The notes below the pieces were generated by a model, which had not been told where the DNA came from, did no database searches, and worked only from the letters and a program-made list of their open reading frames with translations. 64,000 nt of DNA from Escherichia coli (GTDB lineage Bacteria > Pseudomonadota > Gammaproteobacteria > Enterobacterales > Enterobacteriaceae): assembly GCF_030384885.1 (NCBI RefSeq), contig NZ_CP128613.1; one strand, 5' to 3'. The position numbers and the translations under genes were made by a program. Below, piece by piece: positions 1-61,256 of the stretch. Each line of letters begins with the position of its first letter. Within the stretch, counting starts at the first letter, position 1.

Positions 1-1271
1 CAGAGCGATGGCTTTATCGAGCATTGGATCGCTGCCTTTGGCATACGCGCCGACGCTAACCAGATCGCGGTTACGCTGAAAACTCGACAACAGCTGTTTG
101 AAGGTGCGCACTCGCGCGTAATGTTGCTCGCTGATCAACGCCGTCATTGCACGGCTGATCGACGCTTCAATATCAATCGCCGGATAGTGTCCGGCTTCCG
201 CCAGACGACGAGAAAGAACAATGTGACCGTCGAGGATCGCCCGTGCGGAGTCGGCAATCGGGTCCTGCTGGTCATCGCCTTCGGTGAGCACGGTATAAAA
301 CGCCGTAATTGAGCCGCCGCCGCTGATACCGTTACCGGCACGCTCGACCAGCGCCGGTAATTTGGCGAATACCGACGGTGGATAACCTTTGGTGGCAGGC
401 GGTTCGCCAATCGCCAGCGCAATCTCACGCTGGGCCATCGCGTAGCGGGTGAGGGAGTCCATAATCAGCAACACATGCTGACCACGATCGCGAAAATCTT
501 CGGCAATGCGCGTGGCATAGGCGGCACCTTGCATTCGCAGGAGCGGAGAAACATCCGCTGGAGCGGCAATCACCACGGAGCGTGCACGCCCTTCGGCACC
601 GAGGATATTCTCAATAAAATCTTTTACTTCGCGCCCACGTTCACCAATCAAACCCACGACAATGACATCGGCGCGGGTGTAACGTGCCATCATCCCCAGC
701 AGCACACTTTTACCGACACCAGAGCCAGCAAATAGCCCCATACGCTGCCCGCGACCAACGGTAAGTAGGGCATTGATTGGGCGCACGCCCGTGTCCAGCA
801 CATGTTCAATCGGTGTTCGTTGCAATGGGTTAAATGGCGGGGTGATCAGCGCACCGGTTTCTGTCGTATCGGGGGAGGGAAGGCCATCAAGCGGTTTACC
901 GCTGCCATCCAGAACGCGACCTAACAACGCCGGACCGAGTGGCAACTGCTTGCCGCTTTGCAGCCCTTCAGCCGAAATGTGTTTGGCATAAACGCGCGCG
1001 CCGGGCAGGACACCTTCCACTTCTTCCAGCGGCATTAAAAACAGCCGTTGACCGTTAAAGCCAACCACTTCGCTTTCTACTTCATGCGTTTCCGACCCGT
1101 TCTGGCGTTCAATCACACAGGTTGCGCCGAGCGGCAATTGTAATCCGGTAGCCTCCAGCACCAGCCCGGTGGCGCGGGTTAATCGCCCGTAGCGACGTAC
1201 CGCAGGCAACTGCGCCATTTTGGCTTCGAAGTTATCCAGCGTGGTTAGCCAGCGAGTCAGGCGCGTGGTCA

Positions 1272-5971: not shown

Positions 5972-6523
5972 ATGAAAAAGCTTATCGTTTCAAGTGTATT
6001 GGCATTCATAACATTTTCTGCGCAGGCCGCAGCATTTCAGGTCACTAGTAATGAAATAAAAACAGGAGAGCAACTTACAACGTCTCATGTATTTTCTGGA
6101 TTTGGGTGTGAGGGGGGTAATACATCGCCCTCATTAACCTGGTCTGGTGCTCCAGAAGGCACCAAAAGCTTTGCCGTAACTGTGTATGATCCAGATGCGC
6201 CTACAGGCAGTGGATGGTGGCACTGGACGGTTGCTAATATTCCAGCAACGGTAACATATTTGCCCGCTGATGCAGGAAGACGTGATGGTACAAAACTTCC
6301 GACTGGTGCTGTCCAAGGCCGAAATGATTTTGGCTATGCAGGATTTGGTGGAGCATGTCCTCCCAAAGGAGATAAACCCCATCATTACCAGTTTAAAGTA
6401 TGGGCTCTAAAAACTGATAAGATTCCTGTAGATTCTAATTCCAGCGGAGCGTTAGTTGGTTATATGCTTAATGCCAATAAAATTGCAACCGCTGAGATAA
6501 CACCCGTTTATGAGGTAAAGTAG
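5972..6523 (+). CDS. ybcL: Periplasmic PEBP/RKIP-family protein YbcL
   Basis: 183-aa ORF with N-terminal signal peptide MKKLIVSSVLAFITFSAQAAAF; matches YbcL as I recall it. Confidence 0.8.
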   Translation: MKKLIVSSVLAFITFSAQAAAFQVTSNEIKTGEQLTTSHVFSGFGCEGGNTSPSLTWSGAPEGTKSFAVTVYDPDAPTGSGWWHWTVANIPATVTYLPADAGRRDGTKLPTGAVQGRNDFGYAGFGGACPPKGDKPHHYQFKVWALKTDKIPVDSNSSGALVGYMLNANKIATAEITPVYEVK

Positions 6524-6532
6524 GATAAGAGT

Positions 6533-7330
6533 ATGCTGGCAAAAGATAGGACTAACCTAAAGATTGAAGAAATACGGATGCATAAACATCATGAGATTCA
6601 CAGGGTTAAGCCTCTTATGCCAGCTTTATGTCGTATCCGTCAGGGAAAAAAAGTTATCAATTGGGAGACGCATAGTCTAACTGTTGATAATAATCAGATA
6701 ATATTATTTCCCTGTGGATATGAATTTTATATTGCGAATTACCCAGAAGCAGGTCTTTATCTTGCAGAAATGCTTTATTATCCCATTGATCTAATTGAAA
6801 AGTTCCAAAATCTTTATGCGATAACCGATCAAATTCGTAACACGACAGGTTTCTGCTTACCTCAGAATCCTGAGTTAATATATTGTTGGGAGCAACTAAA
6901 AACATCTATTTCCCGAGACTTCTCAACGCAAATTCAGGAACACTTAGCAATGGGCGTTCTACTTTCATTAGGAGCACATCATGTTAATTGTTTACTTTTA
7001 TCAGATAGTAAACAATCATTAATAAGTCGTTGTTATAACCTAATGCTATCCGAACCTGGAACAAAATGGACAGCAAACAAGGTAGCGAGATATCTCTACA
7101 TTTCTGTTTCCACATTGCATCGCCGTCTGGCAAGCGAGGGAGTAAGTTTTCAAAGTATATTGGACGACGTGAGGTTAAATAATGCGTTGTCTGCTATACA
7201 AACGACAGTAAAACCCATCAGCGAGATTGCCAGGGAAAATGGTTACAAGTGTCCTTCTCGTTTTACTGAAAGGTTCCATAATCGTTTTAAGATAACACCA
7301 AGAGAGCTAAGAAAAGCGTCCAGAGAGTAA
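6533..7330 (+). CDS. ybcM: AraC-family transcriptional regulator YbcM
   Basis: 265-aa ORF; C-terminal AraC-type helix-turn-helix region (...[41 protein letters not shown]...). Confidence 0.8.
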
Positions 7331-7339
7331 AAGTATTTT

Positions 7340-7459
7340 ATGAAGGAGCAACAGCATCGATTTTTATTTTGGAAAATAAATACGGCATACTCAACCTATT
7401 GGAGCCTGAACAATCCGGTGACTTCTGCGCTAATCGGGGACGTTTATAAGCACATATAA
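7340..7459 (+). CDS. Hypothetical 39-aa small ORF immediately after ybcM (possibly a ylcH-like small protein)
   Basis: ATG 7340 to TAA 7457-7459, MKEQQHRFLFWKINTAYSTYWSLNNPVTSALIGDVYKHI; below the ORF-track size cut-off; no independent support. Confidence 0.2.
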   Translation: MKEQQHRFLFWKINTAYSTYWSLNNPVTSALIGDVYKHI

Positions 7460-8019
7460 TTGATACTATCTTCCTCCATCACAATTTCAGAAATGCACGT
7501 GTGATTTTTTTGCATCCGGCGTTTGGACTATGTGGAGTTCAAGAGTGGGAAAGTTACAAGAGGTTGAGGGGATAATTAAAGGGATGCTTATGACATTAGA
7601 TATCCGGATAGGTACGGATATCGTTGTTATTAAATCTAGTTTATACGTTAAGATGCAGCTACAGCAGAAATTACCACTGTTAATTTTTTCATCGTGAGCC
7701 CTTTTATTTGTACTATTATTTAAAAATGATGTCACTGCACTACAAATACTCATCTAATCAATGAGATTATTTCAAGATGTAAGTTTTAGTTTCTCATTTA
7801 AATTGTGAAGCAGATCCCTCCTTTTATCTGAACTGTTTCTATTGTACACAATGCATGACTATTTTGTGAACGAATATAAATTTGGTAGTCAAATTATATT
7901 AAAGGTTGTTATTTATGATTGACTCATAATTTATTTTTTTAATTTAAATAACCTAATAATAACCATGGAGATTATTTGCATGATATTTGTTTAGACTTGT
8001 TAATGTAATTGAGGTGATT

Positions 8020-8694
8020 TTATTTAATACGCAATATAGCGCCGCTTGATATTAGTTCTATTTTTTTTTGCGTAAGATAGATGAGACAAACTGAGACGCA
8101 TAATGGTTTGCAAGGCTCTAATACTTTGATGTTGAGGATGTGATGGGGCATGTACGTGCATAGTACAATGATGTCCATGCCGGTGTAGATAATCTCCAGG
8201 CTTATCCGGTGCGCCGTAAAACCCCGTCCTTCAGGGCGGGGATATAAGGCGCGGTTTTCCACCTGACCAGGTGTTTGCTGTTGTTCAATGTATTGGCGGA
8301 TGACGGACATTGGCGCACCTCCGCAGCTACTGGCAAAATTGCCAGGACTCCACAAAACGCCTTTGTAGTAATACCTGACTGTAATATCTGGTCGATCTCG
8401 TCGCAGTAACCTACCCGATACGCCTTTGAGGCTGTTTACCAGACTGGATATCGCCAGTTTGGGAGGATAGTTAATTAACAAATGGACGTGATCTGGTTCG
8501 CCATCCATTTCAACCAGTTCAGCTTCAAAATCAGCACATACATTTGAAAAGTAAGTGCGTAGTTTTTCTGTCGCGTCATGGTCAAAAATCTGGCGTCGGT
8601 ATTTGGTGACAAAGACCAGGTGAACATGCATCAGGAAAACACAATGCCTTCCACGCCGGATATCGGTTTCTTTTTTCACAGACCAAAGTATCAT
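8020..8694 (-). CDS. tnpA: IS200/IS605-family HUH (Y1) transposase TnpA; conserved core is about aa 1-145, and the ORF continues a further ~80 codons with no stop
   Basis: HUH motif (DHVHLLINYPP), ...HVHLVFVTKYRRQ... and catalytic-Tyr region ...GGAPMSVIRQYIEQQQ align with IS608/IS200 TnpA; similarity ends near nt 8275. Confidence 0.7.
   Translation of the reverse strand: MILWSVKKETDIRRGRHCVFLMHVHLVFVTKYRRQIFDHDATEKLRTYFSNVCADFEAELVEMDGEPDHVHLLINYPPKLAISSLVNSLKGVSGRLLRRDRPDITVRYYYKGVLWSPGNFASSCGGAPMSVIRQYIEQQQTPGQVENRALYPRPEGRGFTAHRISLEIIYTGMDIIVLCTYMPHHILNIKVLEPCKPLCVSVCLIYLTQKKIELISSGAILRIK
8222..8241 (+). repeat. Left-end subterminal imperfect palindrome (hairpin) of the IS200/IS605 element
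   Basis: ccccgtcc-ttca-gggcgggg: 8-bp stem with one G:T position and a TTCA loop. Confidence 0.6.
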
Positions 8695-8701
8695 TTGACC
8701 T

Positions 8702-9910
8702 GTGAAACGATTACAGGCATTTAAATTCCAGTTAAGACCCGGTGGTCAACAGGAGTGTGAAATGAGGCGCTTCGCAGGCGCATGTCGTTTCGTTTTCAAT
8801 CGTGCTCTGGCGCTTCAGAATGAGAATCATAAGGCCGGTAAGAAATACATCCCTTACGGGAAAATGGCTTCCTGGCTGGTTGAGTGGAAAAATGCCACTG
8901 AAACGCAATGGCTTAAAGATTCGCCCTCACAGCCATTGCAACAGTCACTGAAAGACCTTGAGCGGGCTTACAAAAACTTCTTCCAGAAGCGGGCTGCTTT
9001 TCCCCGATTCAAAAAGCGGGGACAGAATGATGCATTCCACTACCCGCAGGGCGTTAAGCTCGATCAGGAAAACAGCCGTATTTTTCTGCCGAAACTTGGC
9101 TGGATGCGCTACCGGAATAGCCGTCAGGTCACGGGTGTTGTGAAAAATGTCACTGTCAGCCAGTCCTGCGGTAAGTGGTACATCAGTATTCAGACAGAAA
9201 GTGAAGTATCAACTCCGGTTCATCCTTCAGCATCAATGGTCGGGCTGGATGCTGGCGTGGCTAAACTCGCCACGCTGTCAGATGGCACAGTCTTTAAGCC
9301 TGTAAACAGTTTTCAGAAAAACCAGAAGACGCTGGCGAGACTTCAGCGACAGTTAAGCCGCAAGGTCGAATTCAGCAATAACTGGCAGAAGCAGAAACGC
9401 AAAATACAGCGACTGCATTCCCGTATCGCAAATATCCACAGGGACTACCTTCACAAAGTCACAACGACCGTCAGCAAAAACCACGCAATGATAGTCATTG
9501 AGGATTTGAAGGTCAGCAACATGTCAAAGTCAGCAGCGGGTACGGTCAGCCAGCCGGGGCGCAATGTCCGGGCAAAATCAGGTTTAAACCGTTCGATACT
9601 GGATCAGGGCTGGTATGAAATGCGCCGCCAGCTTGAGTACAAGCAGCTCTGGCGTGGCGGTCAGGTGCTTGCTGTTCCGCCAGCGTACACAAGCCAGCGT
9701 TGCGCGTGCTGTGGTCATACAGCGAAAGAAAATCGCCTGTCACAAAGTAAATTCAGATGCCAGGTATGTGGATATACAGCGAACGCCGATGTAAACGGCG
9801 CTCGTAACATTTTAGCGGCGGGGCACGCCGTTCTTGCCTGTGGAGAGATGGTGCAGTCAGGCCGCCCGTTGAAGCAGGAACCCACCGAAATGATTCAGGC
9901 GACAGCCTGA
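8702..9910 (+). CDS. tnpB: IS200/IS605-family TnpB (OrfB; RuvC-like RNA-guided nuclease family), apparently intact
   Basis: 402-aa ORF, GTG start at 8702. N-terminus [13 protein letters not shown].. resembles ISDra2 TnpB; RuvC-I (MVGLDAG), RuvC-II (IVIEDLKV), Cys4 zinc finger (CACCGH...CQVCGY) and RuvC-III ([10 protein letters not shown]) all present. Confidence 0.85.
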
Positions 9911-9970
9911 ACGTAGCAGGGATCCACGTCCTTCAGGGCGTGGAGGATGTCAACAAACAGGTTGAATTAA
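9790..9970 (+). ncRNA. Predicted TnpB-associated omega-RNA (right-end RNA): scaffold over tnpB 3' end plus right-end hairpin, guide from flanking DNA
   Basis: Inferred from the established architecture of TnpB elements; no sequence-level RNA model was fitted and the extent is approximate. Confidence 0.3.
9924..9943 (+). repeat. Right-end subterminal imperfect palindrome (hairpin) of the IS200/IS605 element
   Basis: ccacgtcc-ttca-gggcgtgg: same stem/loop layout as the left-end hairpin, including the G:T position; 14 nt after the tnpB stop. Confidence 0.6.
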
Positions 9971-10621
9971 CTCCGCGCCCTGGTTTTTGACATTACCCAC
10001 CGCGCGCGACACAGGGTGCCAGGTGAACTGGTTTGCTGGAACACAGCCACTGGCAGCAATTTCAGAGGCTTCTTTACCGCTAATCTCTTGCCGCATCCAT
10101 TCCCGCGCAGCTTCTGGCGACAGTACCAGCGGGCGGCGGTCATGAATATCTACCAGACCCTGGTCTGCTGCTGCAGTGACAATTAAAAATCCTTCGGCTT
10201 CGTCACCACGCTCAAACGGTGTGCTACCTATCGCGGCTATAAAAACAGGTTGTCCATCAGCGCGATAGATAAAATAAGGCTGTTTTTTGTCGCCTTCTTT
10301 TTTCCACTCAAACCAGCCATCGGCAAAACAGATTGCCCGACCATGTTGCCAGAGCGGTTTAAACATACGACTGGTTGCCGCAGTTTCTACGCGGGCGTTA
10401 ATCAGCGGCGGTTTATCCCACCATCCGGGAGCATATCCCCAGAAAACCGGATCCAGATGAAGGTGTTCATCACGTTCACTGAGCAGAAGAACTTTGGTTC
10501 CCGGCGCGACGTTGTATCTGCCAATAGGTTCGGGATCGTAGGGAATATCGCGTTCAATATCTTCCGCGAGAAGCGCAAGGTAATCTTCACGCGTTTGGGA
10601 TTGGGTAAAGCGTCCACACAT
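9950..10621 (-). CDS. yedK: SOS-response-associated peptidase (abasic-site processing protein) YedK
   Basis: 223-aa ORF starting MCGRFTQSQTREDYLALLAEDIERDIPYDPEP... (SRAP family, catalytic Cys2); C-terminus ...AELIQPVC sits at the IS right end. Confidence 0.88.
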   Translation of the reverse strand: MCGRFTQSQTREDYLALLAEDIERDIPYDPEPIGRYNVAPGTKVLLLSERDEHLHLDPVFWGYAPGWWDKPPLINARVETAATSRMFKPLWQHGRAICFADGWFEWKKEGDKKQPYFIYRADGQPVFIAAIGSTPFERGDEAEGFLIVTAAADQGLVDIHDRRPLVLSPEAAREWMRQEISGKEASEIAASGCVPANQFTWHPVSRAVGNVKNQGAELIQPVC

Positions 10622-28378: not shown

Positions 28379-28454
<76 letters not shown>

Positions 28455-28507
28455 GTTTAAAAGACATCGGCTTCAGCGGATGTCCGGCTGAAAGGCCTGA
28501 AGAATTT

Positions 28508-28581
28508 GGCGCGTTAACAAAGCGGTTATGTAGCGGATTGCAAATCCGTCTAGTCCGGTTCGACTCCGGAACGCGCCTCCA
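28508..28581 (+). tRNA. cysT: tRNA-Cys (anticodon GCA)
   Basis: ggcgcgttaacaaagcggttatgtagcggattgcaaatccgtctagtccggttcgactccggaacgcgcctcca. Confidence 0.95.
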
Positions 28582-28593
28582 CTTTCTTCCCGA

Positions 28594-28680
28594 GCCCGGA
28601 TGGTGGAATCGGTAGACACAAGGGATTTAAAATCCCTCGGCGTTCGCGCTGTGCGGGTTCAAGTCCCGCTCCGGGTACCA
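28594..28680 (+). tRNA. leuZ: tRNA-Leu (anticodon TAA), long variable arm
   Basis: gcccggatggtggaatcggtagacacaagggatttaaaatccctcggcgttcgcgctgtgcgggttcaagtcccgctccgggtacca. Confidence 0.95.
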
Positions 28681-46874: not shown

Positions 46875-46902
46875 TTATCCCGATTTCCTCAATTGAAATG
46901 AA

Positions 46903-46929
46903 CCCGATGATCTGCGCATCGGGTTTTTT
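46903..46929 (+). terminator. Rho-independent terminator after cheW
   Basis: cccgatg-atctgcg-catcggg followed by tttttt. Confidence 0.75.
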
Positions 46930-46960
46930 ATGTCAATTTTGCGGTGGATGGCATCATTAA

Positions 46961-46987
46961 TAAAGTTTCCCTCCTTCTTGCCGATAA
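46961..46987 (+). promoter_or_regulatory. sigma28 (FliA) promoter of the tar-tap-cheRBYZ (meche) operon
   Basis: TAAAGTTT-N11-GCCGATAA, exact match to the sigma28 consensus, about 30 nt upstream of the tar ATG. Confidence 0.8.
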
Positions 46988-60421: not shown

Positions 60422-61177
<756 letters not shown>

Positions 61178-61223
61178 TTTTTACCGTTGCATCATGTCGC
61201 CCAATATGATGCTTGCTCGTACC

Positions 61224-61256
61224 AGGCCCCTGCAATTTCAACAGGGGCCTTTTTTT
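61224..61256 (+). terminator. Rho-independent terminator after cutC
   Basis: aggcccctg-caatttcaa-caggggcct followed by ttttttt. Confidence 0.8.

Follow-up and report, generated by a model that had tools for sequence, protein, structure and literature searches.

An IS609 copy beside yedK in Escherichia coli keeps an intact tnpB gene and a conserved RNA structure proposed as its omega-RNA scaffold

The 64,000-nucleotide stretch of Escherichia coli DNA analysed here (the window) contains a copy of the insertion sequence IS609 with sharply defined ends and a TTAT target motif, an uninterrupted tnpB gene, and a conserved RNA structure that runs from the 3′ part of this gene to the right end of the element (Table 1). 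The most convincing explanation, and in our view a highly probable one, is that of an IS609 copy equipped with a TnpB protein, an omega-RNA scaffold and a guide derived from the adjoining yedK gene, with DNA cleavage proposed by analogy. From this arrangement we infer expression, formation of a ribonucleoprotein and cleavage by the TnpB–omega-RNA complex. The locus itself is an ordinary, already annotated and well-known E. coli IS609, and its family is already known.

Membership in IS609 was judged by a nucleotide identity of at least about 95%, measured against K-12-type copies. The part comprising the left end and tnpA (8206–8700) is 98.4% identical to the K-12-type copy at the ydcL–ydcO site (H47), and a query spanning the element shares 98.1% identity with K-12-type copies, among them that of BW25113 (H104); copies with 98.6% identity are labelled “IS609 family” by PGAP. 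E. coli 2013C-4282 carries a 100% match to the element at one place in the record, and the length of 1748 bp recurs at every site looked at. In K-12, IS609 is the sole IS200/IS605 element (PMC5009759).

The boundaries of the element follow from the empty site in K-12 and from insertions at five independent E. coli sites. The empty site reads ...GGCTTAT|CAAACAGG, and all five occupied sites read ...TTAT|CCGGTGCGCC, which corresponds to clean insertion after TTAT without target duplication. Relatives from 13 other species carry TTAT (10) or TTAC (3) in this place. The right end reads ...GGAGGATGTCAA, a boundary that is invariant among the relatives. Both ends bear the subterminal imperfect hairpins of the IS200/IS605 family (8222–8241 and 9924–9943), which have the 14-mer CGTCCTTCAGGGCG in common, and the left-end hairpin is kept in relatives. 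Insertion 3′ of a TTAY tetranucleotide and a right end finishing in TCAA are features that IS609 shares with IS608. The element lies just inside the end of yedK, and its last four nucleotides (TCAA) also provide the new yedK stop codon, so that the IS right end adds one Cys and the product has 223 residues vs 222 in K-12.

Table 1. Features of the IS609 locus, with positions given in the window
Feature	Position	Strand	Basis or remark
IS609 (IS200/IS605 family), 1748 bp	8206..9953	+	single copy in genome
TAM / TnpA target motif TTAT	8202..8205	+	directly 5′ of left end
Left-end subterminal hairpin, 8 bp, UUCA/TTCA loop	8222..8241	+	CCCCGTCC-TTCA-GGGCGGGG; read from sequence
tnpA (Y1 HUH transposase) ORF, 224 aa	8020..8694	-	in-element part 8206-8694
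tnpB / insQ, 402 aa, GTG start	8702..9910	+	ORF list, Pfam, NCBIfam, ISDra2 alignment
Private replacements at three conserved basic residues	9039..9438	+	G9039A (R113H), A9368G (K223E), G9438A (R246H)
RuvC motif GLDAG, residues 181-185	9242-9256	+	catalytic codon D183 (9248-9250)
RuvC motif IVIEDL, residues 264-269	9491-9508	+	catalytic codon E267 (9500-9502)
Zinc-finger cysteines C334, C337, C353, C356	9701-9769	+	CxxC...CxxC
Third RuvC motif, residues 361-370	9782-9811	+	catalytic codon D363 (9788-9790)
Predicted omega-RNA scaffold, ~147 nt	9807..9953	+	covariation, RNAalifold, single-sequence MFE
Long-range, pseudoknot-like helix	9807-9813:9944-9950	+	predicted
Scaffold stem	9815-9820:9826-9832	+	predicted
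Scaffold stem with inner stem	9838-9842:9874-9878; inner 9845-9852:9861-9867	+	predicted
Scaffold hairpin	9894-9900:9905-9911	+	predicted
Terminal hairpin, UUCA loop	9924-9931:9936-9943	+	predicted
Predicted 16-nt guide CAAACAGGUUGAAUUA (also written CAAACAGGTTGAATTA)	9954..9969	+	flanking DNA, antisense to last yedK codons
yedK (SRAP/SOS-response-associated peptidase)	9950..10621	-	stop codon from IS right end (TCA 9950-9952)

The tnpB gene encodes a full-length Cas12-like RuvC nuclease, a match that lies far above chance, and RefSeq names its product “RNA-guided endonuclease InsQ/TnpB”. The domain architecture of TnpB, with an HTH and WED-REC N-terminus, a split RuvC domain and a zinc-ribbon TNB domain, is present throughout: Pfam HTH_OrfB_IS605 (PF12323) covers residues 1–48 (E = 1.5e-13), OrfB_IS605 (PF01385) residues 162–277 (E = 7e-33), and Cas12f1-like TNB (PF07282) residues 304–370 (E = 6e-24), while the NCBIfam model guided_TnpB scores 382.8 bits vs a cutoff of 100. 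The D-E-D triad D183, E267 and D363 aligns with D191, E278 and D361 of ISDra2 TnpB (8h1j/8exa; phmmer E = 1e-53), and the CCCC zinc finger is made up of CACCGH (residues 334–339) and CQVCGY (residues 353–358). Relatives show little or no variation at the three acidic residues or at C336. A sequence-only reading of this DNA had described an apparently intact 402-aa TnpB without internal stop, with its RuvC motifs in these very places and a Cys4 zinc finger, and had placed it in the already described IS200/IS605 family; the Pfam, NCBIfam and ISDra2 results bear it out. An IS609-like TnpB (94.279, presumably the percent identity to IS609) has been purified and assayed with a TTAT target (PMC12781874, Table S2).

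For the guide RNA, an alignment of 39 relatives (A2) was evaluated with RNAalifold and pair counts, using slid and shuffled alignments as controls. The 40 scaffold pairs are paired in 94.5% of cells vs 44–51% in the slid controls, 13 of them show compensatory changes, and the covariation score of 0.215 (0.128 shuffled) was reached by 0/500 shuffles. The pair 105:111, at synonymous codon positions in tnpB, switches between A-U (23 sequences) and G-C (15), and the 7-bp long-range helix, which joins arms lying 130 nt apart, is preserved in 99% of cells. Single-sequence MFE folding reproduces the helices (z = −2.7), and two 5′-truncated remnants (L064 and L066) retain exactly the block of ~150 nt that holds the scaffold. 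As in a guide RNA of this type, the structure overlaps the 3′ end of tnpB as well as the right end of the element and stops at its boundary. The earlier proposal that the 3′ end of tnpB and the right-end hairpin form a guide-RNA locus thus gains support from covariation.

The pairing at the right end could in principle reflect only a single-stranded DNA hairpin recognised by TnpA, and not an RNA. The TnpA of IS608-type elements binds such hairpins as ssDNA, the right-end hairpin is nearly the same as the one at the left end, and five of the 13 compensatory pairs sit in the terminal hairpin. We nevertheless consider this explanation highly improbable, as four more helices upstream covary, two of them at synonymous sites of the tnpB reading frame; nothing comparable to these helices or to the strongly kept long-range helix exists at the left end; the architecture agrees with that of the ISDra2 omega-RNA determined by cryo-EM; and the truncated remnants keep the scaffold block as a whole. 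RNA-seq of E. coli K-12 is reported to have shown a sense transcript that overlaps the 3′ end of tnpB (PMC4615843), in line with an RNA scaffold.

ISDra2 of Deinococcus radiodurans (PDB 8H1J, 8EXA, 8BF8) is the reference for this comparison. It shares with the window copy the order of domains, the catalytic residues, an omega-RNA that takes in the 3′ end of tnpB and the right end, a terminal hairpin capped by a tetraloop, and a pseudoknot-type pairing between the 5′ part of the scaffold and the nucleotides that directly precede the guide; in ISDra2, positions −5..−3 pair with −103..−105. On the other hand, ISDra2 uses the TAM TTGAT instead of TTAT, its scaffold comprises 116 nt vs ~147 nt predicted here, and its long-range helix consists of three Watson-Crick and two non-canonical pairs, whereas 7 bp are predicted in the window. 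The window TnpB also has an insertion of 15 residues that follows the catalytic Glu, and the window tnpA is divergent from tnpB and not co-directional with it. The RNAs known as HgcC, sotRNA (sot0042) and RAGATH-18 belong to tnpB 3′ ends (PMC4615843, PMC11061315), and the window shares with them a UUCA-capped hairpin followed by GGAGGA-GUCA, as well as a CCUGUGGAG...GAAGCAGGAA motif. A covariance-model search, which had been suggested as a check on the scaffold, returned these three families as weak matches, all below the gathering score (HgcC RF00062, 21.9 vs 50 bits; sot0042 RF02656, 18.9 vs 88; RAGATH-18 RF03064, 25.4 vs 44.9). No Rfam family reached its gathering score in the scan of the locus, and the IS609 scaffold is not represented among the curated Rfam families; the matches are resemblances and serve as leads rather than as signs of membership.

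Beyond the boundary, the sequence following ...GTCAA is different at every insertion site. With the position 9953|9954 fixed by the K-12 empty site and the five insertion sites, the guide is predicted to be read from the 3′ terminus of yedK, as had been proposed; its coordinates had to be corrected, since the element ends at 9953 and not near 9955, and the interval 9950–9970 formerly given for the guide took in the TCAA of the element. The guide length of 16 nt is borrowed from ISDra2. In the mechanism that we favour, the last ~100 nt of tnpB and the 43-nt right end of an IS609 with divergent tnpA and tnpB and IS608-like ends, inserted 3′ of TTAT near the yedK end, would fold into the scaffold, and transcription past 9953 would append the guide, a copy of the flanking sequence. 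A promoter and terminator scan found no sigma-70-like promoter on the + strand; its counts were at the level of shuffled sequence, and it is uninformative. If it works as ISDra2 and Geobacillus IS605-family elements do, the TnpB–omega-RNA complex would then cut DNA in which TTAT stands beside the guide sequence. In the K-12 empty site the predicted guide sequence is preceded by TTAT, while in the occupied site it is preceded by TCAA, and for this reason the occupied site would escape cutting. Since such DNA is found where the yedK site is empty or the element has been excised, cutting would help to keep the element in place.

It is less clear how active this particular copy may be. Compared with the K-12 IS609 (insP/tnpA and insQ/tnpB, at ydcL–ydcO), the window copy is alike in its 1748 bp, its ends, the divergent gene order, an identity of ~98%, the GTG start of tnpB, the lost tnpA stop codon and an A.C pair at 9846:9866. 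The K-12 copy occupies another insertion site and therefore has another guide. It also has a nonsense codon in tnpA and the replacement C336Y in the TnpB zinc finger, whereas in the window copy C336 is retained, tnpA is open, and TnpB has six private replacements of its own (E44K, N47K, R113H, E199K, K223E and R246H). The corresponding ratio of six nonsynonymous to one synonymous private change in tnpB is consistent with neutrality (P = 0.52) and inconsistent with the constraint seen between species (P = 0.0016 at omega 0.1), but the excess of replacements relative to other copies is not significant (Fisher p = 0.10) and is suggestive only. R113 and R246 occupy positions at which 23 homologues from other species and 105/105 of the nearest database proteins show no variation; the distant relatives came from a scan of genome contigs, the protein homologue search having given only near-identical E. 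coli proteins, which served for allele frequencies. By alignment, R113, K223 and R246 map to ISDra2 R119, K234 and R257, three residues on which PMC10097598 and the text of the mutational-scanning preprint PMC11844463 are silent; in the neighbourhood of K234 and R257, the ISDra2 residues R231/R232 and H262/K263 make contacts with the omega-RNA.

These changes lend some weight to another explanation, in which the copy is an inert relic in this lineage, with an open frame but a hypomorphic or inactive TnpB, and neither moves nor cuts. The nine nonsynonymous and one synonymous private changes over the whole IS fit drift; R113H and R246H fall on invariant residues, and K223E reverses a charge beside the RNA contacts R231/R232 of ISDra2. 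The A.C mismatch at 9846:9866 lies inside a covarying stem, where C9866T would bring back an A-U pair, tnpB starts with GTG in all E. coli copies vs ATG in relatives, and a −10-like box has been degraded from TATAAT to TATCAT. The tnpA gene has lost its stop codon and carries a private Y119N, which affects a non-catalytic site, and the similar identities of the IS (98.4%) and of the adjoining yedK (97.5%) to their counterparts in E. coli W point to old vertical inheritance. Zero transpositions of IS609 were recorded in K-12 mutation-accumulation lines (PMC5009759). Against a relic stand the intact catalytic triad, zinc finger and domains, the occurrence of the exact protein on 488 contigs without further decay, the lack of significance of the private excess, a scaffold that otherwise equals the consensus, and the possibility that His partially replaces Arg. 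On balance we hold a relic to be a serious possibility, though somewhat doubtful. The earlier judgement that this copy is “probably functional” thus finds only partial support, being somewhat weakened by the private replacements, the A.C pair, the GTG start and the lost tnpA stop codon. Given its replacements at invariant basic residues, the window allele may be less than fully active.

The transposase gene tells a different story from tnpB. Its product matches the NCBIfam model transpos_IS200 over residues 13–138 (profile 2–126 of 126, 142.7 bits) and, like the Y1 HUH TnpA of ISHp608 (IS608; E = 1e-19 to 2A6M), possesses the HUH motif (HVHLL) and a tyrosine, Y135, equivalent to Y127. Loss of the catalytic Tyr, suggested by SPGNF in place of SPSYF in relatives, was rejected when the alignment with 2A6M located it as Y135 in RQYIEQQ. 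The ancestral ATG is a GTG, PGAP flags the gene as a pseudogene, and the ancestral stop codon is a CAG (8263–8265), so that the frame reads through the left end into the flank and extends 81 codons beyond the ancestral end; relatives end in ...QQQTPG-TAG at 143 aa. The TAM, which is ATAA on the minus strand, was rejected as a substitute stop because it is out of frame. Loss of the stop codon is common to all E. coli copies examined, and differs from IS608, as do the lost ATG and the divergence of IS609 tnpA from tnpB. Given the lost stop, the decay of tnpA in E. coli and the zero transpositions in K-12, a role of TnpB that depends on excision may be idle.

Selection on tnpB has been purifying. 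Its dN/dS is 0.05–0.12 between species, and the ratio of nonsynonymous to synonymous changes among orthologues at the yedK site is 24:21 (p = 2.5e-4 vs neutral). The tnpB frame is intact in 13/13 E. coli chromosomal copies, with disruption by nonsense or frameshift in none, as against eight of 13 for tnpA (Fisher p = 0.0016). These observations raise the question of whether TnpB and its omega-RNA are kept at fixed IS609 sites for a role independent of transposition, such as the destruction or conversion of empty-site alleles that come in by recombination (homing or allele-guarding), or antisense or RNA-guided regulation of the adjoining yedK. Besides the contrast with tnpA and the purifying selection at the yedK site, it is favoured by the fact that in at least 4,312 of 5,426 genomes there is a place that covers 80% or more of the IS-dominated query, with the copies examined at a handful of recurring chromosomal sites, and by the antisense orientation of the guide and of any read-through RNA relative to the 3′ end of yedK. 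About 1,090 copies occupy the yedK site. The persistence of tnpB alongside a decaying tnpA also invites comparison with TldRs, in which a TnpB-derived protein and its guide RNA are likewise kept without a working transposase. TldRs, however, lack the RuvC catalytic residues and adjoin the genes that they act with, whereas the window TnpB has its triad intact and lies inside complete IS ends; this difference from domesticated repressors speaks against such a role, as does the lack of a common target that follows from the different guides at each site. Furthermore, within the yedK-site orthologues the ratios for tnpA and tnpB (12:8 vs 24:21) do not differ significantly (p = 0.79), so that the contrast between the two genes rests on the counts of disrupted frames and on the set compared across sites, and gene conversion between copies or TnpA acting in trans could explain the pattern. 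A transposition-independent role is therefore, in our judgement, unlikely. On that reading, the private replacements of the window allele could mark a lineage in which the constraint on tnpB has recently lapsed.

The practical value of these findings is small, and knowledge of the family is unchanged by them. For E. coli, the locus provides an exact description of an endogenous TnpB, with its TTAT TAM, a 147-nt scaffold model and a 16-nt guide, and the natural target of the predicted guide is present in K-12-type genomes. R113H, K223E and R246H, together with C336Y in K-12, offer natural variants for comparison. Finally, the decay of tnpA against the conservation of tnpB in 13 E. coli copies makes a clean local example of the broader question of why tnpB outlives the transposase.

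The TnpB gene of the window is a previously annotated gene. The region is 100% identical to E. coli 2013C-4282 (NZ_CP027579.1), RefSeq lists the gene as insQ, and the IS609 element, the TnpB protein and the class of mechanism are all known already. The sequence-only reading claimed an intact TnpB with RuvC motifs and zinc finger, and this is borne out by the ORF, which opens with GTG and encodes 402 aa with zero internal stops, and by the positions of the motifs (table). The protein contains the three Pfam TnpB domains and scores 382.8 bits with NCBIfam guided_TnpB (cutoff 100). Its best natural solved relative is the TnpB of ISDra2 from Deinococcus radiodurans (E 1e-53), in which D191, E278 and D361 align with the catalytic residues D183, E267 and D363 of the window.

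Annotated genes, TnpB motifs and guide-RNA helices at the IS609 locus
Feature	Position	Strand	Remark
insQ	8702-9910	+	RefSeq: "RNA-guided endonuclease InsQ/TnpB family protein", WP_000826391.1
tnpA pseudogene		opposite to insQ	RefSeq annotation
yedK, yedF, yedE			after the tnpA pseudogene in the RefSeq annotation
TnpB GLDAG motif	residues 181-185
TnpB IVIEDL motif	residues 264-269
TnpB third RuvC motif	residues 361-370
TnpB zinc-finger motifs	residues 334-339; 353-358		CACCGH; CQVCGY
Long-range helix, 7 bp	9807-9813 : 9944-9950	+	just 5' of the guide
Stem	9815-9820 : 9826-9832	+
Stem	9838-9842 : 9874-9878	+	encloses 9845-9852 : 9861-9867
Hairpin	9894-9900 : 9905-9911	+
Terminal hairpin	9924-9931 : 9936-9943	+	UUCA cap

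The boundaries of the element follow from the empty site. The 3' end of K-12 yedK reads ...CTCCAGGCTTAT|CAAACAGGTTGAATTAAC..., and because these halves stand 1748 bp apart in the window, IS609 occupies 8206-9953. Insertion has turned the yedK terminus ...PV-stop into ...PVC-stop, with one extra C-terminal Cys (223 aa vs. 222 aa); the stop codon now in use, read as TCA on the + strand (9950-9952), lies inside IS609 and belongs to its right end. Independent insertions at five E. coli sites were compared (yedK, a TetR gene next to ytfB, ydcL-ydcO, yfaY and yeaQ); all left ends read ...TTAT|CCGGTGCGCC..., and all right ends read ...GGAGGATGTCAA| followed by unrelated sequence. Among other Enterobacterales relatives, the left flank is TTAT at 10 loci and TTAC at 3, and the right boundary is invariant. 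According to Table S2 of a published screen, TTAT is the TAM used for an IS609-like TnpB (PMC12781874).

Since the boundary is set by both the empty site and the insertion-site comparisons, the guide would start at 9954. With a length of 16 nt borrowed from ISDra2, the predicted guide CAAACAGGUUGAAUUA spans 9954-9969 and runs antisense to the final codons of yedK; the earlier placement in the yedK 3' terminus, at "about 9950-9970", was correct within 4 nt. A perfect target of this predicted guide is present in K-12-type genomes, where the site is empty. At the occupied yedK site the guide is preceded by TCAA, not TTAT, which is the usual way in which such elements avoid self-cutting. In a single-sequence fold, UCAAC (9950-9954, the last scaffold bases and the first guide base) pairs with GUUGA of the guide (9962-9966); this pairing could partly sequester the modelled window guide, and is probably due to chance. 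To the left of the element, the window strain carries emrE-ybcL-ybcM (5972-8205) vs. yedL-yedN-intG at the K-12 locus (L002), and the two share only ~17 bp adjoining the TAM, ATAATCTCCAGGCTTAT. Between fliE and yedK lies a variable island, with IS609 at its margin.

In the search for an omega-RNA scaffold, no Rfam family reached its threshold at the IS609 locus. Below threshold, the region 7800-10300 gave matches only on the + strand, within 9783-9966, and each was to an RNA family from the 3' end of tnpB: HgcC and sot0042 (PMC4615843), and RAGATH-18, which is the guide RNA of IS607 TnpBs (PMC11061315). Elsewhere in the window, gathering-level Rfam matches were obtained for MicL sRNA, C0465 RNA and three tRNAs, at 60949-61256 (+), 46894-46971 (-) and 28379-28677 (+).

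The guide-RNA locus proposed at the right end is upheld by covariation. From 57 related loci, gathered with one genome per species, the 230 nt preceding the boundary were aligned for 39 distinct loci, and RNAalifold with manual completion gave a structure of 40 pairs. Paired cells amount to 94.5%; sliding the 3' partners by 1-3 columns lowers this to 44-51%. Compensatory changes affect 13 pairs (77 cells), and 3-6 pairs after sliding. Shuffled alignments have a covariation score of 0.128, and 0/500 of them attain the 0.215 of the real alignment. The same helices are recovered by a single-sequence fold of the window (z = -2.7). The closing pair of the stem 9815-9820 : 9826-9832 is A-U in 23 sequences and G-C in 15, at two synonymous codon positions. 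The 7-bp long-range helix corresponds in position and role to the ISDra2 pseudoknot (-5..-3 with -103..-105), and the UUCA tetraloop motif of the terminal hairpin is the same as that described for sotRNAs and HgcC (PMC4615843). The terminal hairpin, which is also the TnpA-binding DNA hairpin, has a twin at the left end (8222-8241); the helices upstream of it require an RNA explanation because the left end holds no counterpart of them. Two 5'-truncated remnants in other genomes (L064:1500-1677 in a Photorhabdus genome and L066:1500-1648 in a gammaproteobacterial MAG) retain just the ~150-nt scaffold block, which begins with the 5' arm of the long-range helix and stops at the boundary; they have no tnpB upstream and support a predicted 5' limit of the scaffold near 9807. 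At the level of sequence comparison, the RNA structure, TAM and predicted target of the IS609 system are established.

A Photorhabdus/Klebsiella/Pantoea subgroup (L031-L036, L045, L046, L048, L061) has a scaffold of different form, with a terminal hairpin 14 nt longer than that of IS609, a replaced middle hairpin and an identical boundary motif GGAGGATGTCAA. The full-length members examined (L031-L033, L035) encode 408-aa TnpBs with 61-63% identity to the window protein.

The window TnpA matches the whole length of the IS200 profile; its HUH motif is kept, as is the counterpart of the IS608 tyrosine Y127. Relatives have a 143-aa TnpA terminated by TAG; every E. coli IS609 copy examined has CAG in place of this stop (8263-8265, - strand), and the ORF reads across the left-end hairpin into flanking DNA (8020-8205, - strand), reaching 224 aa in the window, so that the insertion site determines the C-terminal tail. 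PGAP flags these copies as 'missing C-terminus'. The C of TATCAT has created a new tnpA ATG at 8694, and the ancestral tnpA ATG is now GTG (8670-8704); with the GTG start of tnpB as well, the two genes have an attenuated look in E. coli. Nonsense or frameshift changes were found in tnpA in 8/13 chromosomal E. coli copies and in tnpB in 0/13 (Fisher p = 0.0016). In seven copies at five sites, tnpA has 16 nonsynonymous to 2 synonymous changes vs. 30:30 in tnpB (p = 0.005), a contrast that is not significant inside the yedK-site set alone. A tnpA nonsense codon 95 is common to the yedK-site copies L068-L072 and the K-12-type ydcL-site copy L006, pointing to recurrent mutation or to gene conversion from copy to copy. 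An IS609-like plasmid copy (L010, pYZ3E2001-3; 95.5% identity) carries frameshifts in tnpA and tnpB.

An IS-dominated query finds a place covering at least 80% of its length in no fewer than 4,312 of the 5,426 complete E. coli genomes, and about 1,090 of them have IS609 at yedK. Identity between the window and E. coli W is 98.4% for the element and 97.5% for the adjacent yedK, consistent with old inheritance by vertical descent. In mutation-accumulation lines of K-12, IS609 transposed zero times (PMC5009759).

The first reading thus stands for identity, guide source and guide-RNA locus, whereas 'probably functional' is somewhat weakened by private replacements and an A.C scaffold pair; activity of the window copy is an unproven claim. 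In favor of function, no catalytic or zinc-binding residue is missing, the scaffold departs from the E. coli consensus at a single position, and the tnpB family is strongly constrained between species (dN/dS 0.05-0.12). In eight orthologous yedK-site tnpB copies, all intact, 24 of the variable sites are nonsynonymous and 21 synonymous (p = 2.5e-4 vs. neutral). On the other hand, relative to the consensus of other E. coli copies, the window TnpB has the private replacements E44K, N47K, R113H, E199K, K223E and R246H, with 1 private synonymous change. R113 and R246 are invariant in 23 other-species homologues and 105/105 nearest database proteins; residue 223 is K in 100/105 of the latter, and K (21) or R (1) in other-species homologues. 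R113, K223 and R246 align with ISDra2 R119, K234 and R257, of which K234 adjoins the omega-RNA-binding R231/R232 and R257 lies in the helix carrying the pseudoknot contacts H262/K263. The private 6:1 ratio agrees with neutral drift (P = 0.52) and disagrees with between-species constraint (P = 0.0016), and does not differ significantly from other E. coli copies (p = 0.10). The scaffold pair 9846:9866 is A.C in the window and K-12, A-U in four other E. coli copies and G-C in most relatives. The tnpB start codon is GTG in every E. coli copy and ATG in relatives, where a perfect TATAAT lies 7 nt before the ATG in a leaderless-like arrangement; the window, like most E. coli copies, has TATCAT. The exact window protein occurs on 488 contigs and is therefore a fixed allele of a sampled clone, not an error. 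For the window TnpB, expression and cleavage are inferences, and the odds that this allele keeps substantial nuclease activity are roughly even. Both of the ydcL-ydcO-site copies examined, L006 (K-12-derived) and L009 (strain 2012C-4227), carry the replacement C336Y, located in the first zinc-finger CxxC; residue 336 is Cys in the window, 104/105 nearest proteins and 21 other-species homologues.

The best-supported mechanism is the standard IS200/IS605 picture, as modelled in PMC10690162 and related work. TnpA, if active, would excise the top strand at the two junctions TTAT|LE and RE|flank, the complex of TnpB and the right-end-derived RNA would cut the resealed TTAT-flank joint, and recombination after this cut would restore the element. 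The only mildly intriguing aspect is that tnpB is kept while tnpA decays across E. coli, which is a known general puzzle.
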